The position numbers were made by a program, and so were the translations under genes. Shown piece by piece: positions 3,816 to 52,892 of a stretch of DNA of 64,000 nucleotides. The first letter of the stretch is position 1. The number at the start of each line of letters is the position of its first letter. The stretch lies in contig CAVQFR010000014.1 of the NCBI GenBank assembly GCA_963711845.1, forward strand, positions 73,644 through 137,643, given 5' to 3'. The DNA comes from an uncultured delta proteobacterium. GTDB lineage: Bacteria > Desulfobacterota > BSN033 > UBA1163. The notes beneath the pieces are model-generated. The model was not told where the DNA came from. It saw nothing but the letters and a program-made list of their open reading frames with translations, and searched no databases.

Positions 3816-3903
3816 AGTCCTATGGGTTAATCGTCACTTCTTGGGATTCTTACTAAGGAATCCATCATTGCCCAGACCATTATCTTCAGAAAATCTCCCC
3901 TAA

Positions 3904-3949
3904 CCCCTCTTTGCCTGTCTAAAGACAGGAAAAGGATACCAAAGAGGGG
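3904..3949. other. nested palindrome (outer CCCCTCTTTG/CAAAGAGGGG enclosing CCTGTCTAAAGACAGG)
   Basis: Read directly; lies between the LVIVD gene 3' end and the tRNA-Leu 5' side. Confidence 0.4.
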
Positions 3950-4100
3950 GATTCCTCTGTCTAACCAATTATGGACTGACTAATAACCAAATTCTCGTTT
4001 AATAGAATTTATAATTCTTAGAAGATTATGTCAATAAAAAATGAAGCTTTATTGAGCAGGTTGATCATTGAAGAGTAAAGGGGACAAGAACGGAAAACTC

Positions 4101-5334
4101 TTACTTCTTATGCCTAAGAATGAAGAGCCCGTGATTCTTGTCCGTGATGTAAATATATCCCCGATTATCGACGATCACGTCTTCTGTCTGGGTGGCCAAT
4201 TCTTTGGGAAGCAGTCCCCTCTTCTTCTTGGGTGAAGCCGGGATGAAATAGGCAATAGGCCTGGGCACGCCCGGGGCAGCTGATGTCGTAAAGCCATAGG
4301 CCTCCACTCTCGTAACAGATATGGATGATGTTATCGACATCCGCAAGACAAGGTTGATGGTGGGGCATGTGGATGTTATGCGGCCCGAACTTTCCTCCGA
4401 GTTCCTGGAAATCTCGAACTCCTAATTCCTCCGGAGGAACCGGGATAGGGAAATTTGCAATTGGTTTGGGTTTCTCCTCATTTGTCATATCCACAACCAA
4501 TGCAAGGTTAAGCGGGTCCCGCTCTTCTTCGAGGATGGCCTCCGTTGTGGCGATCGCCAGTTTCCTCGACGGGATGGGCAAATAGGTGTGAGCTCCCACA
4601 ATGCTTCCAAAATCTCCGATGTCGATGCGGCCGAGTTGGCGAGGATGGGAAAGATCGGAGATGTCCAGGGTGATAAAACCGGCCCGACCATAGGGGAGAT
4701 AAGCTCTCTCTCCTATCACATACGGCGGACCATGGAGTTGATAGAAGCGATCCGCCTTTTCGCCTCCCTCTTCCCATTGTCCTTTAAACCACCACCGTGA
4801 AACCTCTTTGGGGTGGGTCGGATCGCTTATATCCACAGCAACAAAGATGTTTCCTTTATAACCCTTCATGTTGGCCGCAAGATACGCATATTTTCCACCT
4901 GAATAAAAGTTACGGTGGGTTCCAAAGCCTCCGGTTTCAAAAGAGCCCAGTCGCTTGGGATCCGTCGGATTCTTAACATCCCAGATCAGGATGCCTTCAC
5001 CGAAAGGCAGAGAGGGATCGTGTCCCCAGATATCGTTCCGACCCAGGATCCCATCCCCGATTCTCTCCAGAGCGGTGACCATCTTCCCCTGGGCCACCTG
5101 AACTTGTAATGTCCATGTATTGGCCGGACCGGGGATGAATTTGAGAAGCTCGGGTCGAGAGGGACGGGTGATATCCATGATGGTCCAGCCGCGGTGCCAG
5201 AAATGGCCGATATACAAGTACCAGCGGCCCTCCACTTCCTGAATCGCCATCTTGAATCCAGGCCTTTCGTCGAGGTCATGGTATGCGACCGTCTCCATGT
5301 TCTTGCTGATAAAACCCGGACTCTCACTCATCAC
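4101..5334 (-). CDS. LVIVD-repeat beta-propeller protein (apparent frameshift near 3' end)
   Basis: 389-aa ORF with about six repeats of hydrophobic-D-hydrophobic-SDP-x-x-P pattern (ILIWDVKNPTDP, FVAVDISDPTHP, FITLDISDLSHP, LALVVDMTNEEKP, LWLYDIS); final repeat continues in another frame in ORF 4101..4346 (...DVIVDNRGYIYITDKNHGLFIL). Confidence 0.6.
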
Positions 5335-5525
5335 TCACACTCCCACTAAGACTAATTCCCCCACTAGCAGGTTGTTGAAAAAGAGACTATTTCTCAGGCT
5401 GCTCAAAAATGCCCAGATGCAAGGCTCCCGAAATCCTGAGGAATGAGGCGTACTTGGAGGTACGCCGCAATGACGAAGGATGAGGGAAACGAAGCAGATG
5501 GGCGTTTTTCAGCAGCCTGCTAGAT

Positions 5526-6695
5526 TCAAGGGAGTCTCTGTCTAACTCCTCTGATGATATCGACCACATTATTCTGCATCTTTCCATCTTTGATATCTGC
5601 CACACAGATATAAAGGTCGGCGATCACTTGCCCTCGCTCGTCAAAGCGGATCGGTCCCCGCGGGCTGTTCAGGGAGACCTTGGAAATGGCCGCCAGGAAT
5701 TTGTCTTTATCGGAGAGATTCCCTTTAACGCTGGTAGCGGCTGCCAGGATGACCTTGGCGGCATCATAAGCATTCACACTGGGCAACGACGGGTCGGTAT
5801 TAAATTTGGCTCGAAAAGCGGCCACGAACTTCTTATTTTCGGGAAGATCGATGGTCGGTGTGTACGGAGTGACCACCGTATTCCCTTTGATAAAATCCTT
5901 GATCGAATCCATGATCGTTTCTTCATTGATGCCGATCCAGCCGGTCAGGGGTATCTTATCCTTGAGACCGAAGTCCACGTATTGGGAATCAAATTTCACT
6001 GCATCCGCGCCCGCATACCAGGCATATACCGCATCGATATCCCTTCTCATCTGCGAAAGGTAAGGCCCGAAATCAGGCGTATTCATCGGCGTGTAGACCT
6101 CCTGAAGAATCTGCCCTCCCATCTGCTCAAAGCCTTTTTTGAAAGCAGCCACCGAATCACGGCCTGCCGGAAAATCAATGCCAAACCCAACCATTTTACG
6201 ATATCCTTTTTTCTTATAAAGCCACTCCGCAAAGGGGAAATTCGCCTGGCTCGGTATCACCTGGAGGCGAAACGTATACTTGTTGGCCAGGGGCGGAAGC
6301 GTCAGATTCTCCGGCATGGCCAGGGGTACAATCCAGGGAACCTTCTGTTGGACAACGTAGTCCCTCATGGCCACGGCAGCAGCAGCGTTGACAGGCCCCA
6401 TCAGGACATCGATATGGTCCTTCTCCACCAGTTTCTGGGTCTTGGTCAGTGCAATGGCCGGTGACATGACCTCGTCTTCTATGATAACCTTGATGGTCTT
6501 GCCGGCGACACGGTTGGACACTTCATCAAGAGCCAGGGTAAATCCTCTGATGATGTGCGTGCCCTGGAATGTCATTGGACCTGTCTGGGACGCCAGAAGA
6601 CCGATCGTGATCGATTCTTCCGCGCTGAAGGCTGCCAGAGGGAATACGAAGAGGACGATAAAAAGGATGAGTAGCGTGTGCCGGGTCTTTTTCAT
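5526..6695 (-). CDS. ABC transporter substrate-binding protein, branched-chain amino acid (LivK/Leu-Ile-Val-binding) family
   Basis: 389-aa ORF with N-terminal signal peptide (MKKTRHTLLILFIVLFVFPLAAFSA) and type-I periplasmic binding protein fold sequence; divergent from permease/ATPase genes. Confidence 0.85.
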   Translation of the reverse strand: MKKTRHTLLILFIVLFVFPLAAFSAEESITIGLLASQTGPMTFQGTHIIRGFTLALDEVSNRVAGKTIKVIIEDEVMSPAIALTKTQKLVEKDHIDVLMGPVNAAAAVAMRDYVVQQKVPWIVPLAMPENLTLPPLANKYTFRLQVIPSQANFPFAEWLYKKKGYRKMVGFGIDFPAGRDSVAAFKKGFEQMGGQILQEVYTPMNTPDFGPYLSQMRRDIDAVYAWYAGADAVKFDSQYVDFGLKDKIPLTGWIGINEETIMDSIKDFIKGNTVVTPYTPTIDLPENKKFVAAFRAKFNTDPSLPSVNAYDAAKVILAAATSVKGNLSDKDKFLAAISKVSLNSPRGPIRFDERGQVIADLYICVADIKDGKMQNNVVDIIRGVRQRLP

Positions 6696-6846
6696 ACTGA
6701 CTCCTTTCTCTATTTTGTGATCATCTGAATTCGGTATACCCCTTTCCTCTCCGTGGTGAAATGAGAAGAAGGATTTACAATGAACTAAAATTATATTAAA
6801 CCCATGTCTGTGTCAAGATGTCCGCACCAGATAATCCATAATCGTC

Positions 6847-6867
6847 ATCCTGAACTTGTTTCAGGAT
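6847..6867. promoter_or_regulatory. candidate operator palindrome ATCCTGAA-N5-TTCAGGAT
   Basis: Perfect 8-5-8 inverted repeat in the divergent promoter region between the binding-protein gene and permease gene. Confidence 0.4.
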
Positions 6868-6890
6868 CTATGGGTTATCGAAAATGAGAG

Positions 6891-6911
6891 ATGCTGAAAA
6901 AATTTCAGCAT
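6891..6911. promoter_or_regulatory. candidate operator palindrome ATGCTGAAA-AAA-TTTCAGCAT
   Basis: Perfect 9-3-9 inverted repeat, shares CTGAA/TTCAG half-sites with the palindrome at 6847..6867. Confidence 0.4.
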
Positions 6912-7030
6912 GACAGGGATATCGTTAAGGTTTTGAAATTCGATTACGGATTATGTCCGGATGAAATCTTCTTGATTTTAACTCTCCCTCGATATACCAT
7001 GCATCTAATTCTGGAACAACCCCTTAAGTC

Positions 7031-8926
7031 ATGATCTCCTACTGGCTCACGCATATCGTTAACGGACTCTCCTTCGGCATGCTCCTTTTTGTCCTGGCCG
7101 CAGGGCTATCGCTCATTTTCGGGTTATGCCGGATCGTCAACCTGTCCCATGGTTCTTTCTACCTGTTGGGAGGGTATATTGGATTCTCAACGGTTCGCTT
7201 GACCGGAAATTTTCCCCTTGCCGTCCTCCTCGCCATGCTCTCCATGGCCGTTCTGGGAATACTGACGGAACGCATTCTCCTTCGCCGGTTCCGGGTCAAG
7301 CCCCTGGCCCAGGTGTTGTTGACCTTCGGTCTTATCTTCGTTTTTCAGGACGCGGCCATATGGATATGGGGAGGAACGCCTGTCCTGTTGAAGAAACTTC
7401 CTATCCTCACCGGCGCGACGAACCTCTTCGGTTTTTACTATCCGACCTACAGACTTCTCATCCTGTTGATCGGGTTGGTCATCCTTTTCTTTCTCTGGTG
7501 GCTCCTGATACGCACCCGGCTGGGCATCTTCATCCGGGCGGCGGTTGACGACGGAGAAATGGCGAATGGGGTCGGGATTCGCATGAATCTTCTCATGACC
7601 ATGGCCTTCGGTTTTGGCACCCTGTTGACAGGACTGGCCGGGAGTATCGGGGCGCCCTTTCTGGGGGTCTATCCCGGTCTGGATATCGAGGTGCTGCTCT
7701 ATGCGATGGCCGTGGTCATCGTCGGCGGTCTGGGCAGCTTGAAGGGCTCTTTCCTGGGCGCCCTCATGGTTGGCTTAGTCGACTCGATGGCCAAGGCCCT
7801 CTGGCCGGAGACGGGCATGTTTTCGATGTTTGCCCTGATGGCCATCGTATTGATTCTGAAACCTACCGGTCTTTTCGGCCTTCCCATTGCACCCATCAGC
7901 CAGGCATCGGTGTCGGAGGAGATCTTTCTTGAAGCGATTCCTTCAGGCGCCGGACATCCGTTGGGGTGGAGACGGAGGGCGTTGATCCATCCCTCATTCA
8001 TCTGGATCATGACGGCCTGTCTGGTGGCTGCAGGCCTGCTCTGTCCGATCATTCTTTCTACATACTACGTCAGACTGTTTACCCTGGCCTTGATTTGGGC
8101 GATCTTTGCCATGAGCCTCGATCTCATTCTCGGCCTGGGAGGAATCATCTCTCTCGGCCATGCGGTATTTTTCGGAATCTCTGCCTACACGATCGGATTG
8201 GCAGCTCGGTTCTTAACGCCCAATCTTTTCCTCCAGATCGGCCTAGCTCTGTTCGTCTCTGCCTTCGCTGCCCTGGTGTTGGGATGGCTTCTGCTCAGGA
8301 GTCGCGGGGTCTATTTCATGATGTTGACCATCGCCTTTTCCCAGGTCTTTCGGGCGATTGCCCATTCCTGGCGTTCCGTGACAGGCGGAGGGGATGGCCT
8401 CTCCGGTTTTGTACGGCCCATGTGGATGACTTCTGTCGAAACCTTCTACTACTTCGCCCTCTTCGTATTCATCGCCGTCTTTCTCTTCCTCCGATTTTTC
8501 GTCAAATCGCGGGTCGGAATCTCCCTGATCGGGATCCGCGAAAGTGAAAAACGCATGACGAGCCTTGGCTATCACGTAGACCACATCAAGCTTCTCTCCT
8601 TCGTCGTGTCGGGCGGCCTCGGCGGGATCGCCGGCCTCCTGAACGTCTATTTCAACGGGTACGTCAGCCCTGATTATTTTTCTGTGGATACATCCGCACA
8701 GGCCATCATCATGATCATTCTTGGCGGTGCAGGAACATTGATCGGACCCATCCTCGGATCGTTCTTCGTCATCTTCATGCAGAACATCTTGAGCGCCGTG
8801 ATGGAGCGATGGACCCTGGTCCTCGGCGTTCTCTTCATCCTGGTGGTGATCGGCGCCCCGGCAGGAATGGTGGGACTTTGGAGAAAACAATGGCACAAAT
8901 TCAGCCGGAGACAATCCCCGTCCTGA
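7031..8926 (+). CDS. branched-chain amino acid ABC transporter permease, fused LivH-LivM
   Basis: 631-aa polytopic membrane ORF; N-half LivH-like (…VNLSHGSFYLLGGYIGF…), C-half LivM-like (…LDLILGLGGIISLGHAVFFGISAYT…). Confidence 0.9.
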   Translation: MISYWLTHIVNGLSFGMLLFVLAAGLSLIFGLCRIVNLSHGSFYLLGGYIGFSTVRLTGNFPLAVLLAMLSMAVLGILTERILLRRFRVKPLAQVLLTFGLIFVFQDAAIWIWGGTPVLLKKLPILTGATNLFGFYYPTYRLLILLIGLVILFFLWWLLIRTRLGIFIRAAVDDGEMANGVGIRMNLLMTMAFGFGTLLTGLAGSIGAPFLGVYPGLDIEVLLYAMAVVIVGGLGSLKGSFLGALMVGLVDSMAKALWPETGMFSMFALMAIVLILKPTGLFGLPIAPISQASVSEEIFLEAIPSGAGHPLGWRRRALIHPSFIWIMTACLVAAGLLCPIILSTYYVRLFTLALIWAIFAMSLDLILGLGGIISLGHAVFFGISAYTIGLAARFLTPNLFLQIGLALFVSAFAALVLGWLLLRSRGVYFMMLTIAFSQVFRAIAHSWRSVTGGGDGLSGFVRPMWMTSVETFYYFALFVFIAVFLFLRFFVKSRVGISLIGIRESEKRMTSLGYHVDHIKLLSFVVSGGLGGIAGLLNVYFNGYVSPDYFSVDTSAQAIIMIILGGAGTLIGPILGSFFVIFMQNILSAVMERWTLVLGVLFILVVIGAPAGMVGLWRKQWHKFSRRQSPS

Positions 8927-9666
8927 AAATAACGGACCTCTTCAAAAGCTACGGCGGGCTGGAAGTTCTGGCGGACATCCGTTTAGAGATCCATCGCAGC
9001 GAATTACACGCCTTGATCGGGTCGAACGGCGCCGGAAAAACGACGCTCTTCGACATCATCTGCGGGTTTATCAAGCCCTCCCGGGGGAGTATTCAATTTC
9101 TGGGGAAGGAGATCACCTCCCTCCCTCCCTTCAGGCACGCCCATCTGGGAATAGGCCGGACGTTCCAGATCACAACGCTTTTCCGTTCCATCAGCGTCCT
9201 CGATAATCTGCGGCTCACCCTCGAGGCCCTCCCCGCCACCCGCGTCCCCTTCTTGAAGTCAAACAGATTCTCCGAGAAGAACCTGGATCCCGTGAAGGGC
9301 CTGCTCAACACATGGGGGTTGTGGGAAACGAGGAACATCCCCGTAGCCGCGCTGCCGTATGGCGTCCAGAGGCAATTGGAAATCATCATGGCCCTTCTCC
9401 AAAAGCCAAGACTGCTGATGCTCGACGAGCCCATGGCAGGACTTGAGGCGGGAAGCCGAGAATCGATGATGCGCCTGATCAAGGAATCCGGTAAGGAAAC
9501 GACCATCTTTTTTATCGAGCACGATATGAACGTGGCATTGCAACTGGCAGATCGCGTGACCGTTTTGCACCAGGGGAAAATCGTTGCTCAAGGGAGTCCT
9601 GTGCAGGTTCAAAACAACAGAGAGGTTCAACGACTCTATTTCGGGTATGAAGACAAAACGGCATAG
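8890..9666 (+). CDS. branched-chain amino acid ABC transporter ATP-binding protein (LivG-like)
   Basis: Walker A GSNGAGKTT, ABC signature region, Walker B LLMLDEPMAGL; start taken at ATG 8890 (MAQIQPETIPVLKITDLFKSYGG), overlapping permease 3' end. Confidence 0.9.
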   Translation: MAQIQPETIPVLKITDLFKSYGGLEVLADIRLEIHRSELHALIGSNGAGKTTLFDIICGFIKPSRGSIQFLGKEITSLPPFRHAHLGIGRTFQITTLFRSISVLDNLRLTLEALPATRVPFLKSNRFSEKNLDPVKGLLNTWGLWETRNIPVAALPYGVQRQLEIIMALLQKPRLLMLDEPMAGLEAGSRESMMRLIKESGKETTIFFIEHDMNVALQLADRVTVLHQGKIVAQGSPVQVQNNREVQRLYFGYEDKTA

Positions 9667-9768
9667 AGCGTAGAGCATAGAACATAGCGCATGGCGTAAC
9701 TGAGGAAGGCAAGAATGGGTCGAGCCTGCCCGCTGCAGGCAAGGTGCCCTCCAGGCATAGGGTATTAG

Positions 9769-10518
9769 ATGGAAAGTAGACCAATCCTAATAGTGGAAGA
9801 GATTCATACCTATTACGGCCAGAGCCATATTCTCCAGGGGGTCACCCTCTCCCTGGAGCAGGGGGCCATCGTTGCTGTGCTCGGCCGTAACGGCGTGGGG
9901 AAGACGACGCTCATAAGATCTCTCATCGGATTCAACATCCCCAGAGAAGGGAAGATTTATTTTAAAGGTGAGGAGATTACCCGGATGGAGCCCTACGGGA
10001 GGGTCGATGTTGGGTTGGCCCTGGTTCCTCAAGGACGCCGGATCTTTGGCTCATTGACTGTGGAAGAGAACTTGCTTTCCTCGGCAAAGAGGAGAGAAAA
10101 AAGAAAGATCTGGGATCAAAACGGAATTTTTGACCTCTTCCCTCAGCTCAAAGAGAGAAAAAAAGTCAGGGCTTCCCATCTGAGCGGAGGAGAACAGCAG
10201 ATGTTGGCCATTGGCCGGGCCCTTGTCAGCAATCCCGACCTTCTCCTCCTGGATGAACCCACGGAAGGACTTTCTCCTTCTGTGATCCGGGAATTGATCA
10301 AGATTCTTTCTCAACTGGCAAAAGAGGGACAATCCGTCCTCCTTGTCGAACAGAATCTGCAATTTGCCCTGAGTCTTGCAAGTTACCTGTTCATCCTGAG
10401 CAGAGGAAAGATGGTTTATGAGTCAACGCCCTCGGAGCTCTCCCAAAAACCTGAGGTCCAGCTCGCCTATCTCGGGGTTGGCCAGTCCGAGACGAAAGAG
10501 ATGAAACCATCCGAATAA
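9769..10518 (+). CDS. branched-chain amino acid ABC transporter ATP-binding protein (LivF-like)
   Basis: Walker A GRNGVGKTT, signature LSGGEQQML, Walker B LLLLDEPTEGL. Confidence 0.9.
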   Translation: MESRPILIVEEIHTYYGQSHILQGVTLSLEQGAIVAVLGRNGVGKTTLIRSLIGFNIPREGKIYFKGEEITRMEPYGRVDVGLALVPQGRRIFGSLTVEENLLSSAKRREKRKIWDQNGIFDLFPQLKERKKVRASHLSGGEQQMLAIGRALVSNPDLLLLDEPTEGLSPSVIRELIKILSQLAKEGQSVLLVEQNLQFALSLASYLFILSRGKMVYESTPSELSQKPEVQLAYLGVGQSETKEMKPSE

Positions 10519-10702
10519 ATTCTGAGAAAAAGTCCTTAAGGCGAGAAGACGTTGTTTCACTCACCATAGCCATCCCTTCAATCGAAAATTGGCGGAATTT
10601 GCCTCTGCCACTCCCTTGTTTCAAAAAGAAACTTGTGTTAGAGACAAATGAATACAATCTAGTGTAGCATATCTAACACCTCTTTACACCGATCCCGAAG
10701 CC

Positions 10703-10767
10703 GTCATTCCCGCGAAAGCGGGAATCCAGATTAGATACACTGGATTCCGGGTCAAGCCCGGAATGAC
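10703..10767. repeat. nested-palindrome element with GTCATTCC...GGAATGAC termini (family member 1)
   Basis: gtcattcccgcgaaagcgggaatcc...ctggattccgggtcaagcccggaatgac: two adjacent hairpins with similar stems plus terminal inverted repeat; second copy with same architecture at 40246..40359. Confidence 0.5.
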
Positions 10768-10921
10768 AAATACAGGAGAGGAACTTTTAATTCACTACAC
10801 TGGCAAAGCCATATTTCGTTCAAATCTCCCTCTCACCTTCCAGCGGGGGAGGTAGATCGTGGAGAATGTTAGAAAAACCTTTTAGACCTAGATACATCAA
10901 AATCCAAAGAAGGAGAATGCG

Positions 10922-12627: not shown

Positions 12628-14077
12628 CTATCTTTTAAGTACGGGCACGGAATATGGCCCTTCTCGAATGAAGGCCACAGTCGGTTCAATCCCTTTTTCT
12701 CGATAACGGTAAACAGCAAATTGGACAGCCTTCTGTACCATCTCCTGGGCCTTCTCAACGGCAGGCTTTATCCTTTTTCCCTTCATAAAATCGAGGCCAC
12801 AGACTCCCGGAAGGATGCAGTAATTTTCTCTCTCAATTTCCAGGGAACAATAAATCAGCCCGTCCTCTCCGATTTTTCTCAGGACCTTCCCCCAGACCTC
12901 GGGTTCCCATTGATCCTTTGTAAACTTCCAGCCGGAAGTTTTCAGTAAATCGAGATAGCCGTCCGGTCCCTGCAATTTTAGCAGGTGAATCAGACTTCTG
13001 TATTCCGGAGACCCGATGGGGTTGATGAAATCCCGGTTATTCGCTGCGATGATGATGACACCCCCTTCTTTCACCGCCGGGATAGCGCCCACCCCTGCCT
13101 TGGCCGTCTGGTAATGATCTCTTCCCACATATCCGCTGTGAGTCAGTACGATATCGAACTCCTCATCAAGAGGGATCTCCGCATAGCCCTTGATCATTTC
13201 AAAGGCCTTCATATTTCCCTCCACCATATCCCCTGTAAATACTCTCACGAGGCGCAAATCTTTATCCAGGTTGACGTTGATAACAAAATCAACTCCGACC
13301 GTCTGGGCAACTTCCAAAGCCTCCTCGTGACATGGATTCCCTTCGAGGACGAGGTTCGTTGCCCGGGGGTCTTCAAGATAAGGCAGGCCCGTGAAATCTT
13401 TGAATGGTCTTGACGTCCACCAATCCCGGACAAACGGATTTTCTCCCACCGGAGATCCCTGTGAAAAAATGACTCTCGACGAGTCCTGTCGCAATCTTCA
13501 GGTCCGCAAAATAGAAGTCCCGATTGACATAGACATGGGTCCCTCTTTTTGTCTTTCCGATACTCTCCAAAAGATCGTTATTCTCACAATCGTGGTCCAG
13601 GATCGTGTACTGTTTAACCACTTCCTCCCCGTACATCTCCACCTTCTCATCCGGGGTGCTTGCTCGATGCATTCCTGTCGCTACAATAATCTTGATATTT
13701 TCTTTCTTAATCCCTGAAGACTCCAGGCGTCCAAGCAGCGGGGGGAGGATGCCGCCTTCTCCTTTATAAGGAACGGGCCTTGTAATATCGGAAACAGCAA
13801 TGGCCACAGACATCTGTTCGGGAGGTTTCCCTTTTTTCCGGATGATCTCTTCCAAAGGGGGACTGCTGATGGGGGCTAGAAAAGCCTGCTCAAAGGCCTT
13901 TTGGGGATCCGGTAATACGGCAACCTCCTTCATGGTGAGTTCAACACTGTTTGGAGGCACCCAAACCTCTATCGCGTTTCTTCCAAACTCTACTGAGATT
14001 TTCTTCCAATCCTTCATATCAATTTTTTTAATAGCCTTTTTAAGGTCGCTTCGCATCGTGGTTCTCCTGACGATCAT
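12628..14077 (-). CDS. LarA-family (nickel-dependent lactate racemase-like, DUF2088) protein, interrupted by apparent -1 frameshift
   Basis: Two overlapping ORFs (13373..14077 N-part with VAIAVSDITRP, IVATGMHR, FFTGISGGRKSVCPG; 12628..13494 C-part with LEGNPCHEE) together match one LarA-like protein; frame change near 13380-13400 at a G/C run. Confidence 0.7.
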
Positions 14078-14438
14078 TTGGGGTTATGAAGTCTTGAGCT
14101 CGGCGTTCGCTCCCTCCGCGGTCGCCCTATTCTGAAACTTCTTTCTCCGAACCCATTAAGTTTAGTATAACCTGCGCCACCTCACATTACTATGTAACTT
14201 CAAATCCTGTCAAGATCAGCACCCGATCGAGCTTTTCGCCAGCTTGCGGGTGATTCTGCTTGATAATATAGAGCGCGATAGATCCACTTTAATCCAGGAG
14301 GATCGCTCGAAAAGCCTGAAGGTCGTACTTATGCCCCTAGGTATTCGGAGTGGAGATGAGGGTTTACATCGAAAGGTTGAATGGATTAATCCCTTGGAGC
14401 AAATCAGAGGCGAAAGGAAACAATTGGAGTATCGTAAT

Positions 14439-14702
14439 CTATGAAGAAGCCATCGGCTTAGGATACAAACGCAGATAAATCCCAAATACGTCATCTGCCA
14501 TTTTTTCGGTTGTCTCTTTAATCTCATGTAAACTTGATATGAAAGAGTGCAGCGATTCGTCAAGTTTCGTTATGTTCTCACAGTTCCTTTTTGAATTTTC
14601 TAATAGTTTTTTCTCCCGCTCACGAGATTCTTCAATAAGATCTCTTAACTTTTCTCTCTCTTCTTCAGTCCACTCTGACACAAGCTCATCGACTGTCTTC
14701 AT
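14439..14702 (-). CDS. hypothetical small charged coiled-coil protein
   Basis: 87-aa ORF rich in E/K/R; weak SD upstream; no recognisable family. Confidence 0.3.
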   Translation of the reverse strand: MKTVDELVSEWTEEEREKLRDLIEESREREKKLLENSKRNCENITKLDESLHSFISSLHEIKETTEKMADDVFGIYLRLYPKPMASS

Positions 14703-15030
14703 GACCTATCCTTTCTTGCGGGAGATAGGAAATATAAAAGCAAAATATATACCGGCTTCATGGGTCATCCAGGAAACCATAAAATAACTCACCTCTTCGA
14801 GGAGTTAGACAATCATAAGAAAACCCGGCGAAAACTGACCCTTCAAAAAAAGAGAAACGCTTTACTCTTTTTAGAAAAATCGTTTCCCTTTTTGGGAAGA
14901 TTGAATGGATTCGATCTGTCGAAAAAATTCGGAGGGAGGTTATTGAATCAGCAAGAGAGATCGATTTCACTTCTTATGCTGCCACTATCTCGAGCGGGCT
15001 CTCCATCTCAAAGGCGAACTGAATGCAGGA

Positions 15031-15079
15031 CCCCTCACCCTTCCCCTCTCCCCAGCGGGAGAGGGTGGGAGTGAGGGGG
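15031..15079. repeat. GC-rich palindromic repeat, copy 1 (CCCCTCACCCTTCCCCTCTCCCC / GGGAGAGGGTGGGAGTGAGGGGG)
   Basis: Read directly; immediately 3' of the peroxidase gene; related copies at 28669, 36175, 46536, 56160. Confidence 0.6.
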
Positions 15080-15083
15080 TCAT

Positions 15084-16484
15084 CTAAAGTTGGCGCATAA
15101 AAGCCACAAGATCCCTCTTCTCCTGCTCGCTCAGTTTGAGCTCAAGAATCAAATTGAAAAACTCCACCGTATCTTCCAACGTCAGGAGCCTTCCATCATG
15201 CAAGTAAGGAGGGGAATCTTTAATCCCTCGCAAAGGAAAGGTCTTGATGGGGCCATCTGCAGAGGCATATCTCCCATTAATCATCCGCGGTTTAAAGAAA
15301 CGTTCACCCTTCAAGTTGTGCATCAGATTATCGGTATAGTAGGGAGCTGGATGACAGCTTCCGCAAGCAGCTTTGCCGAAGAAGAGTACCTGCCCCCGCA
15401 TTTCCGGTTGGGTTGCCTTTTTCGGATCAAGCTTTCCGTCGATCCCAAGCTTAGGAGCCGGCGGAAAGTCCAGCAACGCCTGGAACTCCGCCATAAAATG
15501 GACCTGGCTCCCCCGCTCCAGGATGTTGACCCCTTTTTTCGTAGCAATCACCGGGTCGCCGTCAAAATATGCAGCCCTTTGTTCAAATTCGGTGAAGTCT
15601 TCGACCGACTTCAAAGCTCGCTGCGACCCAAACAGCCGCTGGATGTTCACACCCCGTAAACTAGGGGTATCCAGACGATGCCGGAATTCCTGGGGCCGGA
15701 TATCCCCAACAAGGTGTGTCGAGGCATTGGTATGTCCGTTTGCATGGCAGTCAAAACAGACGACCCCACGGCTTGGACGCTCGGACCGCCGGTCCTCGGT
15801 TTGGTTGAACTGCTGTTGCGGGAACGGGGTGACCAGTAGCCTCAGGCCTTCAATCTGCTTGGGGTTTAGAACTCCATTGAACAGCGCATAGTAGTTATCA
15901 AGAGTGACCAGTTTCCCCTGCGAAACATCTCCTAGGTCAGATCTCGTGGTCAGATAGATCGGTGCTGGGAACTCAGGAATCAAGTGATCCGGTAAGTCAT
16001 AATCCAGGTCAAAGCGCGTGAGGTCCCGACCTTCTTGCTTCTTGATCTCATCAATATGGAACTTGGGAAAGAGCATGCCCCCTTCAGGATGATTAGGATG
16101 CGGGAGCGGGAAAAAACCCGCCGGGAATACGCCCTTCTCGCGAATCTCCTCCGGACTCATTCCGGCCAATCTCTCCCAAGTCATCCCCCCTGGAAGTTTC
16201 GCACGAACGCCCTCCTGAACAGCCTTGCCGCGAGACATCGTCACCCCTGCGGCCGGACGGTTACTCAGGTCATAGCGCTCACTAAGCAAATCCATCTGAC
16301 GCTTCATCACCCCTGGCTTTGCAGCTTTCATCCGGGTCATGATCGCTTCAAAACTCTCTTTGATCACCACGGGAGAGTAACTCGACTCTCCTCTTGAAGG
16401 AGATTGGGCAAAAGTAGAAATCGAAACAATAATCAATGAGAGAGTCACACTTGCCAATCCAATGTATTTTATCGCCTTTGACAT
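15084..16484 (-). CDS. di-heme cytochrome c peroxidase family protein with long N-terminal extension
   Basis: 466-aa ORF, signal peptide, two CxxCH heme motifs (CFDCH, CGSCH) and CCP-like C-terminal motif SPPYLHDGRLLTLEDTVEFF; roughly 240 aa precede the first heme site. Confidence 0.75.
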   Translation of the reverse strand: MSKAIKYIGLASVTLSLIIVSISTFAQSPSRGESSYSPVVIKESFEAIMTRMKAAKPGVMKRQMDLLSERYDLSNRPAAGVTMSRGKAVQEGVRAKLPGGMTWERLAGMSPEEIREKGVFPAGFFPLPHPNHPEGGMLFPKFHIDEIKKQEGRDLTRFDLDYDLPDHLIPEFPAPIYLTTRSDLGDVSQGKLVTLDNYYALFNGVLNPKQIEGLRLLVTPFPQQQFNQTEDRRSERPSRGVVCFDCHANGHTNASTHLVGDIRPQEFRHRLDTPSLRGVNIQRLFGSQRALKSVEDFTEFEQRAAYFDGDPVIATKKGVNILERGSQVHFMAEFQALLDFPPAPKLGIDGKLDPKKATQPEMRGQVLFFGKAACGSCHPAPYYTDNLMHNLKGERFFKPRMINGRYASADGPIKTFPLRGIKDSPPYLHDGRLLTLEDTVEFFNLILELKLSEQEKRDLVAFMRQL

Positions 16485-16923
16485 TTTTCTTAACCTCCCT
16501 TTTATGGAATTTTTCAGGAACTGAGATTCACCTTCTTCTTCTCATGATCCCACTGCCAGCCATCTGATCCTATGAAAATACCTGCACACACCAAATAGAT
16601 TAGTATCTACGGCATTCCCGGGTGAATAGGGCAAACACTGTATTTTTCTTGAAGAAGGACAGTATTTTGAGACTAATGGGAATAAAACGATTTTGTGGAA
16701 TATCCGAGGGGATCCAATTTTCAAGAAACATTCCTCGCCCTTGACGGCGAACGATCGTACCGGGTGATGATTACCCCGAGCATCATCTTGTTTGATTTTC
16801 TAAATGATTTTTTCTCGACGTCGTTTTTCCTTGGGTTTAAGAATTCCCCCTCTTTGCTTCCATCTCTGTTTTTCCTTCATCTCCATCTCTCGATTCATCA
16901 CACCCGCCCTTTCAGGAGAATTT

Positions 16924-17136
16924 TCATCTTGAGGATTTTCGAGGTTTCATCTTGGAAACGATTCCATAAGTGCTTTTATAGATATCTATCCATTGATCCC
17001 TGAATTTTTCATAATTTAATGTTTCATTTTTTTCTGACTTAAGCAGCTCAAGAACAAGGTAACAAGAAGCAAGATTTGAAGAAATAACAACACTTCTCAG
17101 TTCATTGAGTTCCGGTGACAAGGGTTTTAAATCCAT
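16924..17136 (-). CDS. hypothetical small protein
   Basis: 70-aa ORF with canonical SD AAGGAGG 6 nt upstream of ATG; located in AT-rich islet. Confidence 0.4.
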   Translation of the reverse strand: MDLKPLSPELNELRSVVISSNLASCYLVLELLKSEKNETLNYEKFRDQWIDIYKSTYGIVSKMKPRKSSR

Positions 17137-17367
17137 ACTGAACCTCCTTTACTTATTAGATTATTTTTTTCTTTCCCTTCATCCCTTGATCCACTATTCT
17201 CCCCTTTTTCGAAAAACTCCTCCTTCGTGAATATCCCTTACTCACCAACTAACCCAGCATGGGCTTCCGGGCGGACGACCAGAAGCATGGGAAGTTCTTC
17301 AAAGGAAACGGCTTGGGGGTGTTAGGAGGCATTCCCACGGCGAGCCTCCACAGAATCGATGTGAAAA

Positions 17368-17700
17368 TTATCCTTTATCACAGCCAAAATATTTAAATAG
17401 GCCGCTCACATAGTTCCCCCATGTTGGAATCAATCTATCAATTTCGTATGACAGCAGAGTTATCTCTCCGCTATGAATCTTATTGTGTACCTCCTCCAGC
17501 TTCTCATATCTCAAAGGCCATGTCATTTTTCCGGATTGATTAACCACATAGAAAGTTTTTTGCCTCTCGTCAATTCCGACGATTCGCAATTGGTTAAGGC
17601 CATCTGCAGCCCAGAATTTTATATCCTGATCCTTCATTTCCTTTAATTTTTCCCAACTAAACAAGCACTTCGGAATAATCTCTATGATTTTCATCATCAT
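17368..17700 (-). CDS. hypothetical protein
   Basis: 110-aa ORF, AGGAG upstream of start; AT-rich context; no recognisable family. Confidence 0.4.
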   Translation of the reverse strand: MMMKIIEIIPKCLFSWEKLKEMKDQDIKFWAADGLNQLRIVGIDERQKTFYVVNQSGKMTWPLRYEKLEEVHNKIHSGEITLLSYEIDRLIPTWGNYVSGLFKYFGCDKG

Positions 17701-17726
17701 CCCCTTTTATTCTCCTAGGCCTTCCT

Positions 17727-17845
17727 GTGGAGCCCCACGGGCAAAGCCCGTGGCACCTGACTAACGCCCGAGAGGGGCGACATCCCGGCCAAAAGTTGGC
17801 GCATTCATCCACGGCCAAAGGCCGTGGCTTTCTGCTGCCGGGGTA
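17727..17845. repeat. dispersed ~120-bp hairpin-rich repeat, copy A
   Basis: gtggagccccacgggcaaagcccgtgg...ggcgcattcatccacggccaaaggccgtgg...ccggggta; about 85-90% identical by eye to 51967..52086. Confidence 0.65.
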
Positions 17846-18174
17846 GACCGTCTACCTCGCAAAGAGCGAAGCCGATTTCCTATCATCGATGATCAACAGA
17901 TTCCCCGGGTTATTCTCCTCAGCAGCCTTTTTCTCCGAATCGTCACAGCGACACCAACCGTCCTGGTTCTTTTCTGCACTCTCGCAACGTTCTGCGTTTC
18001 CTTCCAGTCTAATAGCTTAGGGGAGGCAGAGGGCTTCAGCCTTAATGGAAGTGTATTAGAGCAAGAACACTGCGTCAATAAGAATTGGAAGAATGGAAGG
18101 GTGGCTACCTCCAAATTCCATGACCTTACATCGCGTGGCTGGGCAGGCGAAGACCTGTACTCCTTTGAAATTAT

Positions 18175-18249
18175 TGGAGGCGGCAATCGGATTTGAACCG
18201 ATGAATAACGGTTTTGCAGACCGTCGCCTTACCACTTGGCTATGCCGCC
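18175..18249 (-). tRNA. tRNA-Cys (anticodon GCA)
   Basis: Reverse complement GGCGGCATAGCCAAGTGGTAAGGCGACGGTCTGCAAAACCGT...ATCGGTTCAAATCCGATTGCCGCCTCCA; acceptor stem pairs perfectly, discriminator U, CCA encoded. Confidence 0.9.
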
Positions 18250-18251
18250 CT

Positions 18252-18326
<75 letters not shown>

Positions 18327-18348
18327 ATCTTGTCTTTTCAATGGTTAA

Positions 18349-18377
18349 AAATTACAAGATTTGCCCCTCGATGTCAA
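18349..18377 (-). promoter_or_regulatory. candidate sigma70-type promoter for tRNA-Gly/Cys (TTGACA-N17-TAATTT on minus strand)
   Basis: Minus-strand sequence ttgacatcgaggggcaaatcttgtaattt about 22 nt upstream of tRNA-Gly 5' end. Confidence 0.4.
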
Positions 18378-18418
18378 TAGGGAAAAGAAAAGATGGGGAG
18401 ATGAAAAGATGTAAGAAT

Positions 18419-18955
18419 TCAGGCAATGATGGACTTCAGATATTTCCGGAAATAGTCAGCCCCGGATATAACGGCAACGACCAAAGCAACCCATAGAAAA
18501 ACCATCCCAATCGGATGGAAATCAACGGAAAAATACCTCCCATTGAGGATAAGAAAGAAGATGGACGTCATTTCGAAAACCGTTTTATATTTTCCCAAAT
18601 TACTCGCAGAAATAACAATATTTTGAGTGACGGCAATCCCTCTTAAACCGGTAATGGCGATCTCCCTTCCGACAATGACAATGACCATCCAGTCAGGAAT
18701 CTCTCTCGCTGGAATGAGTGCGATCAGAGCCGTCACGATCAGAAGCTTGTCCGCAAGGGGATCAAGAAATTTCCCCAAGGTCGTTTCCATGCCACGCCGT
18801 CGTGCGAGATATCCATCGAAGGTATCCGTAACAGCGGCTCCAAGAAAGAGCAGCGCCGTGAAGAATTGATACCCCCTGCCCGTATAAGAAAGGAGAACAA
18901 GGATAAGAGGAATGGCCAAGATCCTGAGGATGGTTACCCCATTGGGTAGACTCAT
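18419..18955 (-). CDS. pgsA: CDP-diacylglycerol--glycerol-3-phosphate 3-phosphatidyltransferase
   Basis: CDP-alcohol phosphatidyltransferase motif DTFDGYLARRRGMETTLGKFLDPLADK; membrane protein; followed by tRNA-Gly/tRNA-Cys as in the E. coli pgsA-glyW-cysT arrangement; start probably internal Met (MSLPNGVTILR). Confidence 0.85.
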   Translation of the reverse strand: MSLPNGVTILRILAIPLILVLLSYTGRGYQFFTALLFLGAAVTDTFDGYLARRRGMETTLGKFLDPLADKLLIVTALIALIPAREIPDWMVIVIVGREIAITGLRGIAVTQNIVISASNLGKYKTVFEMTSIFFLILNGRYFSVDFHPIGMVFLWVALVVAVISGADYFRKYLKSIIA

Positions 18956-19028
18956 GATCTGCCGGTAATTGAGTTTTTCCACAGAGGGATTATACTACCT
19001 GATTGATTTCTCGGCAAGCTTTTAAAAA

Positions 19029-19652
19029 TTAAGGTCGATAGGATTGATAATAGCTTAACACTTTTTTGACGTAATCCACGGTTTCCCGATACGGAGGGAT
19101 CGAACGTACCTCGGCAACGATATTCTCACCGGCATTATAGGCGGCTATGGAGAGCCGAAGATCATCATTAAAAAGGGAAAGGAGATACTTAAAATATCTT
19201 ACTCCCCCTTCAATATTTTCTCTGGGATTGAAACTGTTCGAAACATTGAGCCGCGAAGCGGTCTCCGGCATCAGTTGCATCAACCCCTTTGCTCCTTTTC
19301 TTGAGACCGCAGCGGGGTTGAATCCTGACTCTGCCCGGATGATTGCCTTGATCAACGCAAAATCCACCTGGTATTTCTTAGAAAACTCCGAAATGAGTGA
19401 GTCGTATTGATTCGAATCTCTTATGTACGAAAAGGAGGAGTTTCCACCTCCAACATCTTCTTTGCTCTCCCGGATGTAGAGCTTAAATTTGGGGTCTCTC
19501 GGGCAGTTGGTGAAATGAATGACCCCATTTTCATCTTCGTAACGATAAATCCCCGCTGACGAGGGCAGGGGCAGGAAAAATATGCAAAATAAAATCAATA
19601 GAGTGACAATGTAATTCATTAAATTTCGATTCCCAATGTCAATATTGGCCAA
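19029..19652 (-). CDS. lytic transglycosylase (SLT domain) with N-terminal membrane/signal segment
   Basis: SLT catalytic motif ESGFNPAAVSRKGAKGLMQLMPETA and AYNAG. Confidence 0.8.
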   Translation of the reverse strand: MANIDIGNRNLMNYIVTLLILFCIFFLPLPSSAGIYRYEDENGVIHFTNCPRDPKFKLYIRESKEDVGGGNSSFSYIRDSNQYDSLISEFSKKYQVDFALIKAIIRAESGFNPAAVSRKGAKGLMQLMPETASRLNVSNSFNPRENIEGGVRYFKYLLSLFNDDLRLSIAAYNAGENIVAEVRSIPPYRETVDYVKKVLSYYQSYRP

Positions 19653-19963
19653 AAACTACCATAACTTGTCACTTCTGTCAACGAAATTCTAGTCTCAAGG
19701 TATTTAGAAATTTTCTCAACCTAATGAAATCAAAGGATATTTGTGAATTTTTCTGAAATATACCTTGATAGAATAGTGCAATCTCTATGCCCATTGGCCG
19801 GCAAGCGCCCCATCTTGCCAAAGTGGGATAGGCAGGGTCCCTGCCTACCGACCCCGGTCCCAATCGAGGGCAGGGAAGACAGAATTCTCGCTTTTTCCTG
19901 AAGATTGTCGAGCGGGGTATATAGGTATAGGCAGCAGGACAAACAAAGAGGGTACGGCGTTCT

Positions 19964-22900
19964 TTAAGCCCCCTTTTTAATCGTCCACCGGCGTCGGATC
20001 CAGCCACCGAAATCGTCGAGAACCGAATACATCACCGGTACAATGAGAAGTGTCAAAAAGGTGGATGTGATCAACCCGCCGACCACTGCACGAGCCATAG
20101 GTGCCCGCATCTCCGCTCCCGCGCCGAGCGCCAAGGCCAGGGGAAGCATTCCGAAGATCATGGCCAGGGTGGTCATCAGGATGGGACGAAGTCTCGTTCG
20201 GCCTGCGGTAATGATTGCCTCCGTGCGATCCATGCCCCGGGAGCGCAGCACCTTGGCAAAGTCGACGAGCAGGATGGCATTCTTTGTCACGAGACCCATC
20301 AGCATCATGAGGCCGATGAGGGACATCATGCTGATCGTATCGCCTGTGAGCCAGAGCATCGTTGCCATCCCGATCAGAGAAAGGGGCAATGAGAGCATGA
20401 TCGAGAGGGGGTCGATAAACGATTCAAACTGGGCTGCCAAAATAAGATAAACGAGGATGATGGCCAGGATGAGAGCCTCTGCCATGTATCCCAATGATTC
20501 TGTCATTTGCTCGGCTTCTCCAGAAAAAAATACCCGGTATCCAGGAGGCATCCTGATGAGGGAGGCAGCCTGGCCTACCTTTTCTATGGCCGTCCCCAGA
20601 GGGAGATTGTCGAGGTTTGCAGAAACCACAACCTGACGAGTCAGGTCCTGCCGGTCGATCTCCGAAGGAGTGGGCTTGATGGAGTAGGTGACCAGTTCGC
20701 CCAGTGGAATGAGTGTGGGTCCATTCCCCGGTTTTTGAACGGCCAGTCTGAGTTTTTCAACATGGGATAGATCTTGCCTGAGAGTGTCCGGGAGTCTGAC
20801 GCGAACGTTCACCGCGTCGCCGTCCTCATCTTCATAGGTGGTGACCGCTTGCCCGCCCACCAATGCGCCCACCGTCCGCACGATGTGGCCCGTCGTGATT
20901 CCCACGTCAAAAGCCCGCTCCCGGTCGACCGTCAAACGGTACTCTGGGATGTCCTGCTCCAGGGTAACCTCGATGTCGACGATGCCCGGAATCTGGTACA
21001 TCTTCTCCTTTAAAGCCGCAGCATATTTCTTGAGAAGGGAAATATCATCCCCCCGGATATTGACGAGAAGGGGTTTCCGGGTATCCATCCTCCCCGCCTC
21101 CGTGATGAAGGGCAGGATGCCGGGAATCTTCTGGAGAAGGCGACGGGTCTCCTCTTGGATCGCTTTCTGTGAACGCCTTCTCTCGTTGCGGTCCGCCAGC
21201 TTGACATAAACTTTCGCATCGCGGACGGTTCCCTGGTCGCCTGCTCCAATCGTGGCATAGGTATGTTGAACCTCGGGGATCTCTTTCAGCGAAGTCAAAA
21301 CAGCATGGACTCTTCCCCGGGTCTCATCCACGGAGGCATCCGGGGCGGTCGTGAAGTTGACTTCGAATTCTCCCTGGTCGTACCCGGGCACGAACTCGCT
21401 CTGGAGAAAAAACTTGAAGACCACCAGACCGCCTACAAGCGAGAGGACTGCGATCAGGAGGACTGTCCTGCGGTGTTTCAGAGTCCAGGCGATAACGATG
21501 CGGTATTGATCCGCGGTTCGATCAAACCAGTTGTTGAATCGGTCAAGAACCCGAGCGACCAGGTGTCTCTTTCCCTTCCGCTCAATATCCGGGTCGACCC
21601 ATCGGGAAGAGAGCATGGGGTCGAGGGTAAATGAAACAAACAAGGAGACGAGAACCGCAAAGGTCACGGTCATCCCGAACTGAAAGAAAAACCGTCCGAT
21701 GATCCCCTTCATAAACGCCACCGGGACGAAAACAGCCACAATGGAGAAAGTCGTCGCTAAAACGGCCAACCCTATTTCACTCGTCCCCTCTCGAGCCGCT
21801 TCGAAGTGATCCTGTCCGCTCTCGAGGTGGCGGACGATGTTCTCCCGGACGACGATGGCATCATCGATGAGGAGTCCTATGGCGAGGGAGAGCGCCATCA
21901 GGGTCAACACATTCAGTGTCATTCCCAGGAAGTTCATGACGATAAACGATGAGATAACCGAGATGGGAAGTGTCAGGCCCGTAATCACCGTCGAACGCCA
22001 GGAATTGAGGAAAAGGAAAACGATGAAAATGGTCAAAATCCCACCGAGGATGAGCGTGTCCTGAACGTCGCGGACAGAATCACGGATCATGATCGATCCG
22101 TCACGTACAATCTCAATCTTTGTCCCCGGAGGAAGTTCCGACTGAAGTTTAGAAATTTCCTTCTTCACCAGATCCACCGTCCCCACGACGTTTGCTCCGG
22201 ACTGCTTGAGGATGTCAAGGGAGACGGCCTGGACCCCGTTCACAAAAGCCAAGGACCGCTGCTCCTCAATCCCATCCTTAATCTCTGCCACCTCTGAAAG
22301 CATGATGGGACGGCCGTTGCGCTCGCCGATGACCATTGTCTTGAATCGATCCACCGCCTCGGGCTTTCCGGAGACCCGTAAAGGGTATTCGGAGCTGTTC
22401 CGATTGAGCCTGCCGAGAGGGGTGTTGACGTTTTCCGACTGAAGCCCTGCCATCACTTCGTCCACACCCATTCCGAGCGCTTCCAGTCGGAAACGATTAA
22501 TGTTGATGTTCACCTCTCGCTTCGATTGGCCTACCAGGTCGACTTTCCCCACGCCGGAGAGGTTTTCGAAGCGGCGCTGGACCTTCTTCTCGACCAGAGT
22601 CGTCAGGTCTTTGGGAGAGAGAACATCCGAACGTACGGCGAGAGAGACGATGGGTATCGAAGAGAAATCAAGCTTCTGAATGATCGGTTCTTCTATCCCT
22701 TGGGGCAGATCCCCTCGGATGGCGTTGACCTTCGCCCGTGCCTCTTGGGAGGCCTCGTTGATTTTGACCTCTAAGTTGAACTCGACGACTACCAGAGAGA
22801 CACTTTCACGAGAGGTGGAAGTGACATGTTTGACCCCCGAGATCGGATTCACCGCCTCTTCGATCCGCTTCGATACCTCCCTCTCCACCGTCTCGGGTGA

Positions 22901-51966: not shown

Positions 51967-52086
51967 GTGGAGCCCCACGGGCATAGCCCGTGGTACCCTA
52001 CTTCACGCCTCAGCGGGGCGACATCCCGGCCAAACGCTGGCGCATTCATCCACGGGCAAAGCCCGTAGCCTTCTGCTGTCGGGGTA
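51967..52086. repeat. dispersed ~120-bp hairpin-rich repeat, copy B
   Basis: gtggagccccacgggcatagcccgtgg…ggcgcattcatccacgggcaaagcccgtag…tcggggta; partial extra copy of the 3' part immediately upstream (about 51905..51960). Confidence 0.65.
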
Positions 52087-52187: not shown

Positions 52188-52595
52188 TCATGTTCTTTTG
52201 CTTTTTGATATCTCCCAAAATTCTCTTGGAGTTATGATTGGGACTGAATGGAACTTCTTCAGCACAAGAAGATCCTTATCTCCAGTAATGATGTAATCGG
52301 GTTTGGCTACTTCAGAAAGACCAAGAATTTTGACATCATCAATATCTCTGCAGGCGTCTTTATCTAACCTTTTATGGTCGCTGAATGTACAAAATTCCTT
52401 CAAATATTCAGTGATCATGAGAACCTTATCCTTAGGCATCTTCATTTTTTTCTGTAAATTCCTTTGAACCTCAGATAGGATGTGTTCGCTGATAATGATT
52501 TCATGCTTTTCCAGGCAGAGTTCAAAAAGGGCGTGGGCCAGCCCTCGCCCTGCAAAGGCCGCTAAAATAACATTTGTATCGAGAATTACTCTCAT
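52188..52595 (-). CDS. PIN-domain toxin (VapC-like)
   Basis: MRVILDTNVILAAF…DIDDVKIL…ITGDKDL; 4-bp overlap with upstream antitoxin. Confidence 0.75.
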   Translation of the reverse strand: MRVILDTNVILAAFAGRGLAHALFELCLEKHEIIISEHILSEVQRNLQKKMKMPKDKVLMITEYLKEFCTFSDHKRLDKDACRDIDDVKILGLSEVAKPDYIITGDKDLLVLKKFHSVPIITPREFWEISKSKRT

Positions 52596-52810
52596 GATAC
52601 TTCTTTATAGACATCCTCGTCTGTAAGGATGCCCTGGGCCTCTGCAAAAGGGAGAACCATATTTCGAAGTCTACGAAACCGGTAGATGGCTATATACCTC
52701 TTCAACGATTCTCTAACGAGATCGCTAATGGGTTTCCCCTCTGCCTTACTGATCTCCTGTAATCCCTCTCTTAAATCATCAGGAATTCTGATGGTCAGGG
52801 TCTGATTCAT
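52592..52810 (-). CDS. ribbon-helix-helix (CopG-like) antitoxin
   Basis: MNQTLTIRIPDDLREGLQEISKAEGKPISDLVRESLKRYI; ORF track extends upstream into glyS 3' end, start taken at internal Met. Confidence 0.65.
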   Translation of the reverse strand: MNQTLTIRIPDDLREGLQEISKAEGKPISDLVRESLKRYIAIYRFRRLRNMVLPFAEAQGILTDEDVYKEVS

Positions 52811-52892
52811 ATTCACCCTCCTTTGTAATACAACGTAACACAGACGACGAGATTTGTCAATTCTATTAAAGTTTTCAGACAAAAGGCGGTAA

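Follow-up and report, generated by a model that had tools for sequence, protein, structure and literature searches.

An AT-rich, tRNA-adjacent islet in uncultured Thermodesulfobacteriota is probably a resident cluster of undescribed small genes and not recent cargo

Among the described systems that come closest to the locus considered here are tRNA-associated genomic islands and type IV restriction loci of the GmrSD/BrxU type (DUF262-DUF1524). The locus is an AT-rich islet of 1216 bp, at positions 16485-17700 of a 64-kb stretch of contig CAVQFR010000014.1 (hereafter the window), and its host belongs to the uncultured Thermodesulfobacteriota, the nearest contigs being metagenome-assembled genomes from soil and peat assigned to 'delta proteobacterium', Syntrophaceae and Thermodesulfobacteriota. 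On its minus strand lie two small open reading frames (ORFs), p110 and p70, with a decayed third one, p46, between them. Like tRNA-associated islands, the islet lies downstream of the 3' end of a tRNA-Cys gene, is low in G+C content (GC), carries orphan genes and is missing at this junction in one more distant relative; unlike them, it has no integrase, attachment (att) repeat or mobile genes, it diverges together with its flanks, and its GC deficit is found throughout the gene families concerned. The likeness to GmrSD/BrxU loci lies in distant members of the p110 family, which adjoin GmrSD_N, HEC-05/BrxU-like or HNH_2 proteins, whereas the p110 branch of the window has no nuclease neighbour and finds no match in PADLOC. 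To our knowledge, no published defence system includes the p110 domain. The analysis presented here indicates that the islet is probably a chromosomally resident, vertically inherited small-gene cluster (p110, decayed p46, p70), specific to uncultured Syntrophales-like Thermodesulfobacteriota, and not recently acquired cargo.

An earlier note, made from the sequence alone, had described the segment as AT-rich, with minus-strand ORFs of 70 and 110 amino acids (aa) preceded by AAGGAGG and AGGAG and belonging to no recognisable family, lying between a repeat element and tRNA genes, and had taken it for horizontally acquired cargo. The features of the islet and of the adjoining tRNA genes are as follows.

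16485..16923, no strand: spacer between p70 and the gene for a 466-aa protein, non-coding, GC 0.417
16924..17136, minus strand: p70, ORF of 70 aa, basic (pI 9.1), undescribed family
17143..17149, minus strand: Shine-Dalgarno sequence AAGGAGG of p70, 6 nucleotides (nt) before the ATG
17148..17318, minus strand: psi-p46, degenerate member of a family of 41-46 aa ORFs that is present in many copies, nhmmer E 8e-31
17368..17700, minus strand: p110, ORF of 110 aa (family of 108-110 aa), cytoplasmic, undescribed domain family
17701..17716, minus strand: translation-initiation region of p110, with AAGGGG at 17706-17701 and a conserved AGGAG at 17716-17712
18175-18249, minus strand: tRNA-Cys(GCA), its 3' end facing the islet
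18252-18326, minus strand: tRNA-Gly(GCC), adjoining tRNA-Cys

The composition and the two ORFs with their ribosome-binding motifs proved to be as described. With a GC of 0.403 against a window mean of 0.490, the segment is the lowest-GC stretch of its length in the 64 kb, and only 0.016% of all 1216-bp windows are equally low. The genes themselves are atypical when profiled against 43 long ORFs of the window (mean gene GC 0.495 ± 0.032, GC at third codon positions, GC3, 0.564 ± 0.058), p110 having a GC of 0.381 and a GC3 of 0.450, and p70 a GC of 0.333 and a GC3 of 0.282. In the minus-strand order the islet reads p110, decayed p46, p70, and the tRNA pair lies 474 nt upstream of p110 on the same strand. 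A search of 14000-20000 against Rfam at E ≤ 1 returned the two tRNAs and nothing else.

More than half of the islet (670 of 1216 nt, 55%) is non-coding, non-coding DNA of the window is AT-richer overall (GC 0.449), and the spacer at 16485-16923 is poorly conserved, so that one could suppose the small ORFs to have arisen by chance in AT-rich spacer DNA. This supposition, to which we give practically no credence, is refuted by the number of homologues and by the ratio of non-synonymous to synonymous divergence (dN/dS). For p110 there are 187 homologue clusters at 70-92% identity, nearly all of 108-110 aa, and for p70 there are 150 clusters at 73-100% identity, in both cases from Thermodesulfobacteriota metagenomes; in pairwise comparisons with relatives, p110 has a dN/dS of 0.06-0.12 and p70 one of 0.10-0.15, with saturating dS. 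The initiation region of p110 has three tandem ATGs, which the AAGGGG abuts; AGGAG precedes the first of them by 11 nt, and the homologues mostly begin one or two residues further on. The pattern AGGAGAA-AA-AGG is kept in five orthologous loci. The confident AlphaFold2 fold of p110, described below, also speaks against chance. Constant homologue length, a dN/dS of about 0.1 and conserved Shine-Dalgarno motifs show, at the level of sequence comparison, that both p110 and p70 are translated and that purifying selection acts on them. The lack of a recognised family was confirmed as well, in that p110, p70 and p87 (a neighbouring orphan gene, listed below) gave noise only, with no meaningful E-values, against Pfam, NCBIfam, PADLOC and PHROGs.

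What found no support is the reading of these genes as cargo recently acquired by horizontal transfer. Besides p87, the neighbourhood contains a gene for a secreted protein on the far side of the islet.

14439..14702, minus strand: p87, orphan gene of 87 aa, GC 0.383, next to LarA and outside the islet
15084..16484, minus strand: 466-aa secreted protein with two CxxCH motifs, GC 0.52, no Pfam threshold passed

The islet is in place in close relatives (related loci are designated here by L numbers), where L002/L003, L016, L047, L048 and L050 share the order SLT, pgsA, tRNA-Gly, tRNA-Cys, p110, p70, 466-aa gene, p87, LarA. Measured against L002 and L016, the islet genes have a dS of 0.37-0.72 and the flanks one of 0.34-1.5; the dN of the islet genes to close relatives is comparable to that of the flanking housekeeping genes, and pgsA, SLT, larA and the 466-aa gene have a dN/dS of 0.06-0.15, the same range as the islet genes. 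The divergence of p110 and p70 has thus kept pace with that of their flanks, and we conclude that the islet is vertically inherited in this genus. No integrase-like ORF was found in 14000-18400, and an integrase present in L002 lies beyond SLT/pgsA, outside the islet. A direct-repeat search of 13900-18400 found no repeat of the tRNA-Cys 3' end, only the similarity between tRNA-Cys and tRNA-Gly and short chance matches. Relatives of p110 were also absent from phage and plasmid collections (tblastn) and from IMG/VR (family-alignment scan).

The low GC of these genes is found in every genome examined. In each of the 39 loci longer than 4 kb, p110 has a GC 2-14 points below that of its flanks (mean -9), and the GC of p70 is 10-16 points below in eight of eight (mean -13), while flank GC ranges from 0.40 to 0.54 across loci and the GC of both genes tracks it. 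The deficit is constant across loci whatever the GC of the host, which argues that AT-richness is intrinsic to the families; the low GC is then a durable property of p110 and p70 and not the trace of a recent donor.

The opposite explanation is that a mobile element integrated at the tRNA-Cys 3' end and brought in cargo whose low GC comes from a foreign donor. The lowest-GC stretch of the window does lie directly downstream of that 3' end, p110 occurs in many contexts with up to three copies per genome, and a distant p110 branch is found in integrase-flanked defence islands. In L042, moreover, the whole of 14049-18173 is missing: LarA lies less than 80 nt from tRNA-Cys, with 73% nucleotide identity over ilvD-larA, and a 56%-identical p110 paralogue is found elsewhere, near a tRNA-Leu. 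From this junction it follows that the 4.1 kb of 14049-18173 represent an old indel at a tRNA-flanked site. Against the mobile-element explanation stand the missing integrase, att-like tRNA-end repeat and element boundaries, the missing phage, plasmid or viral-contig relatives, the presence of the islet in congeners with a divergence equal to that of the flanks, and a GC deficit that tracks host GC, unlike un-ameliorated foreign DNA. In addition, L013 and L014 have the order TctABC, p110, p70, p87, LarA, without the tRNAs, pgsA and the 466-aa gene; p110, p70, p87 and LarA therefore stay together while their surroundings change. We consider cargo integrated at the tRNA unlikely, and for recent transfer this explanation is already largely refuted; horizontal acquisition survives only as a possible ancient event. 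The synteny comparison showed no variable presence among close relatives, all of which have the islet in place; it is absent only in the distant L042, and in L013 it is present but rearranged. Of the acquisition proposal as a whole, what stands is that the ORFs are real, without family and of atypical GC, and that an indel lies at the tRNA site; recent acquisition is not supported.

Three observations weigh against the residence of the cluster as we read it. L042 has nothing of the segment between LarA and tRNA-Cys, as described above, and the families are patchy and multi-copy, which together leave room for older horizontal spread within the phylum; and the GC3 of p70 is persistently 0.28-0.41 (window, L002, L010, L013, L016) beside flanks of 0.47-0.54, an AT bias at silent sites that persists although synonymous divergence equals that of the flanks.

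Sequence from the 231 nt that separate p110 and p70 recurred at several places in distant loci, and this led to p46. A cis-regulatory RNA had been considered for the conserved 145-nt p110-p70 stretch and was rejected, as translations and codon-position variability show a small ORF. The consensus of the family, from 24 distinct aligned copies, is MSQVVQQEALTRLLVEKGIFTKEEFLEMVRVVDREMKRK, and its codon-position entropy is 0.52/0.40/0.88, the third position being about twice as variable as the others, which shows selection as a protein. With a profile built from the other p46 copies, nhmmer detects the copy in the window, whose reading frame, opened by an ATG at 17288-17286, is interrupted by a TAA at 17240-17238 and shifted by one inserted nucleotide near 17211. 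These lesions are real, because the independent short-read assembly L001 shows them identically. The ORF is intact in L002 and reduced to a 53-57-nt remnant in L016, L047, L048 and L050. Of 42 distinct p110 loci, 16 have a p46 element that begins about 20-60 nt (mostly about 55) past the stop codon of p110, and from this recurrent arrangement we infer that the ancestral unit was p110-p46, with p46 undergoing loss in this genus. No further copy of p110, p70 or p46 was found elsewhere in the window.

In other loci p46 is found in up to five copies or fragments per 16 kb, all on the gene strand and placed -11 to +40 nt before different genes, which include DnaJ-TM, ABM-like, SprT-like HExxH and small Zn-ribbon proteins; p70 is itself one of the many unrelated genes directly behind p46 copies. 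L004, L020, L036 and L046 each hold several copies, and several copies, that of the window included, carry stops. A 102-aa protein (L004 7949-8257) has the p46 motif at its C-terminus. The peptide shares a helix-turn-helix-like motif, KG-I-x-T-x-EEF, with the N-terminus of the nitrile hydratase alpha subunit (NHase alpha) and with short helical proteins (L-x2-LL-x-EKG-I-x-T-x-EEF); the match to NHase_alpha profile residues 5-39, at E 0.006-0.018 and 14.8-16.4 bits, is below the cut-off of 27.2 and probably reflects a shared helical motif and not membership. Against NCBIfam, p46 matched no NHLP or ribosomally synthesized and post-translationally modified peptide (RiPP) model, and the genes downstream of it are heterogeneous, with no maturases nearby. 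p46 may also resemble SHOCT-like peptides.

So many copies on the gene strand, each before a different downstream gene, together with a near-invariant stretch of about 25 nt before the ATG that contains no Shine-Dalgarno motif, could mean that the p46 cassette is a functional unit, namely a shared leader or regulatory module of a regulon that includes p70, of which the window would hold a dead copy. This appears doubtful to us. The third-position variability indicates selection as a protein, and the p46 of the window has a stop and a frameshift and is truncated in most congeners, while p70 is still under purifying selection. Because selection on p70 persists where p46 has decayed, p70 is independent of p46.

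Being small, adjacent, on the same strand and without family, p110 and p70 might also form a two-gene module of toxin-antitoxin or defence type, and distant p110 relatives do lie in defence islands beside a ribbon-helix-helix (RHH) antitoxin gene, GmrSD-like nucleases and PDC-S31. The co-occurrence pattern rules out an obligate pair: more than 30 loci have p110 but no p70, and L010-L012 and L046 have p70 but no p110. The two genes are moreover 231 nt apart with a decayed third gene between them, and neither a PADLOC match nor a toxin or antitoxin fold match was obtained, so that such a module is very unlikely. For p70, AlphaFold2 predicts a two-helix hairpin (residues 8-34 and 39-61; predicted local distance difference test, pLDDT, 80) with the basic tail KMKPRKSSR; p70 would thus be a basic helical hairpin that gives no further functional clue. 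p70 was also considered as a J-domain relative of the DnaJ-TM gene found behind p110 in other genomes, and this was rejected for want of an HPD motif and of a Pfam match.

The AlphaFold2 model of p110 is compact (pLDDT 90) and consists of one helix, three strands and three helices, which suggests a compact alpha/beta domain. Compared with the PDB and BFVD it showed neither a fold nor a sequence match, and a sequence-profile search of the PDB returned nothing; homology searches and structure prediction thus yielded many homologues for both proteins and, for p110, a confident fold without a known match. The best, though weak, structural neighbours of the model are Sm-like/WYL and winged-helix domains (Hfq, BrxR, CapW, PafBC, FtsK-gamma, AbiEi), which are small regulators, some of them of defence systems, and p110 is likewise found as the output domain of a response regulator. 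In the alignment Cys11, His71 and Cys106 are invariant and His75 nearly so, and more distant members have a CxxC at the first position. Conservation of this kind makes Cys11, His71-x3-His75 and Cys106 the probable ligands of a metal. The elements FWA-DGL, W60-P61 and PTWGN are conserved as well.

The p110 family is small, with 63 representatives at 50% identity among 1.84 billion proteins, and patchy, and its fusions and neighbours give some indication of what the domain may do. The fused representatives are Response_reg+p110, HisKA+p110, DUF2089 Zn-ribbon/helix-turn-helix+p110 and p110+AGOG DNA glycosylase; those that carry p110 as the C-terminal domain of a response regulator are close relatives, whereas the DUF2089 and AGOG fusions are more distant. 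For the distant branch, with 35-45% identity to the window protein, five genomic contexts were examined, and in three of them a GmrSD_N (DUF262) protein lies beside the p110-like gene. One of these neighbours matches the HEC-05 model at E 4e-194, HEC-05 being a BrxU-type GmrSD-like defence protein (bioRxiv 10.1101/2024.01.29.577857). Another of the three contexts is an island flanked by an integrase, where PDC-S31 and a type I methyltransferase are also present; the fourth context contains an HNH_2 nuclease and the fifth is uninformative. Any role in restriction would be putative even for the distant branch. In one clade (L022, L023, L026, L031, L035 and L043) the synteny is stable: a PilZ-domain gene (RxxxR ... 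SxxG motifs), itself preceded by an operon for an Mla-type ABC transporter, lies immediately upstream of p110 on the same strand, about 75-360 nt away. This adjacency could link p110 to cyclic di-GMP signalling.

From the fusions and nuclease neighbourhoods of its relatives we infer, with moderate confidence, that the p110 domain is a nucleic-acid binder or a regulatory output module. It would bind nucleic acid or serve as a regulatory output domain, and in the lineage of the window, where p110 stands alone among housekeeping genes, it would most likely act outside any restriction system, as a small regulator or a DNA/RNA-binding factor. Several points count against this interpretation. The fusion protein P0286 is without the Cys/His residues of the putative metal site. 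Each fusion architecture is represented by a single metagenome gene call, which may be a mis-call. A tblastn search with three of the GmrSD-like neighbours found no such nuclease in the window, nor in any of the 35-40 loci that make up its p110 branch, and p110, p46 and p70 have no experimental or homology-based function.

Between p110 and the tRNA pair lie a repeat and a conserved non-coding region.

17728..17854, no strand: GC-rich repeat of 127 nt with three hairpins, second copy at about 51967-52086
17855..18114, minus strand: non-coding region upstream of p110, 73-84% conserved in relatives

The adjacency of the islet to the tRNAs is as the earlier note had it; its placement between a repeat and the tRNAs is not, as this repeat separates p110 from the tRNAs and the far side of the islet is the 466-aa dihaem-type gene, where no repeat element was found. 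The repeat contains the parts CCACGGGCAAAGCCCGTGG ... GCCCGAGAGGGGC ... CCACGGCCAAAGGCCGTGG; its two copies in the 64 kb, where zero are expected, share about 85% identity and differ in hairpin 3 by a compensatory change. It is inserted about 10 nt upstream of the conserved p110 AGGAG, is missing at the orthologous site in L002, L003 and L016, and has no match in Rfam. In its copies, its structure and its presence or absence at orthologous sites it behaves like a strain-specific insertion of the miniature inverted-repeat transposable element (MITE) or repetitive extragenic palindromic (REP) type. The second copy adjoins a pair of PIN (VapC-like) and RHH-like genes at 52188-52987 on the minus strand. 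Of the region upstream of p110, the portion 17944-18093 is kept in L013, where the tRNA genes are absent, and 17855-18114 is a probable promoter or 5' region of p110.

At the other end of the islet, the spacer at 16485-16923 has many indels and is alignable among relatives only in patches. It contains a terminator-like hairpin at 16734-16751 (minus strand) and must hold the upstream region of the 466-aa gene; L013 is without all of 14943-16923. A promoter and terminator scan gave no enrichment over shuffles. In the window, L002 and L016 the 466-aa gene separates p70 from p87; L013/L014 lack it. A 22-bp GC-rich inverted repeat is found at 15031-15078, just downstream of this gene. p87 forms a second AT-rich patch (GC 0.38-0.39) and encodes an acidic, coiled-coil-type protein; in relatives its conservation goes together with that of p110 and p70, and its dN/dS is about 0.1. 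A frameshift near 13385-13410 divides the LarA-like (Lar_N) gene at 12628-14077 (minus strand) into two overlapping ORFs, and in relatives one protein of 476 aa is encoded; this is either a pseudogene or an assembly indel. From tRNA-Leu(TAA) to ilvD, at 3816-10908, the window has about 7 kb, whereas L042 has only 138 nt (9431-9567), and its p110 paralogue lies about 1 kb from the tRNA-Leu of that junction. Junctions flanked by tRNA genes seem to be indel hot spots in this lineage.

The main outcome is a correction: a low-GC stretch with orphan ORFs beside a tRNA mimics an acquired islet, where we find an old vertical cluster with AT-rich families, and this calls for caution in composition-based island calling in poorly sampled phyla. 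The families of p110, p46 and p70 are undescribed, and the fold of p110 appears novel, with circumstantial links to DNA-targeting systems. A well-folded, strongly conserved protein with neither a Pfam entry nor a structural match, p110 is suited to structural genomics and to studies of defence islands, and the regular placement of multi-copy p46 before many unrelated genes deserves a study of its own. Taken further, and as speculation that we regard as improbable in its full form, p110 may be a new metal-binding nucleic-acid-recognition fold that elsewhere partners nucleases of the GmrSD/BrxU and HNH types, perhaps to sense or regulate modified DNA, and that in Syntrophales-like bacteria would have been domesticated and multiplied as a stand-alone regulator, ancestrally paired with p46. 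If this were true, the islet would offer a view onto an undescribed small-protein regulatory system, with p46 copies standing before unrelated stress-type genes.

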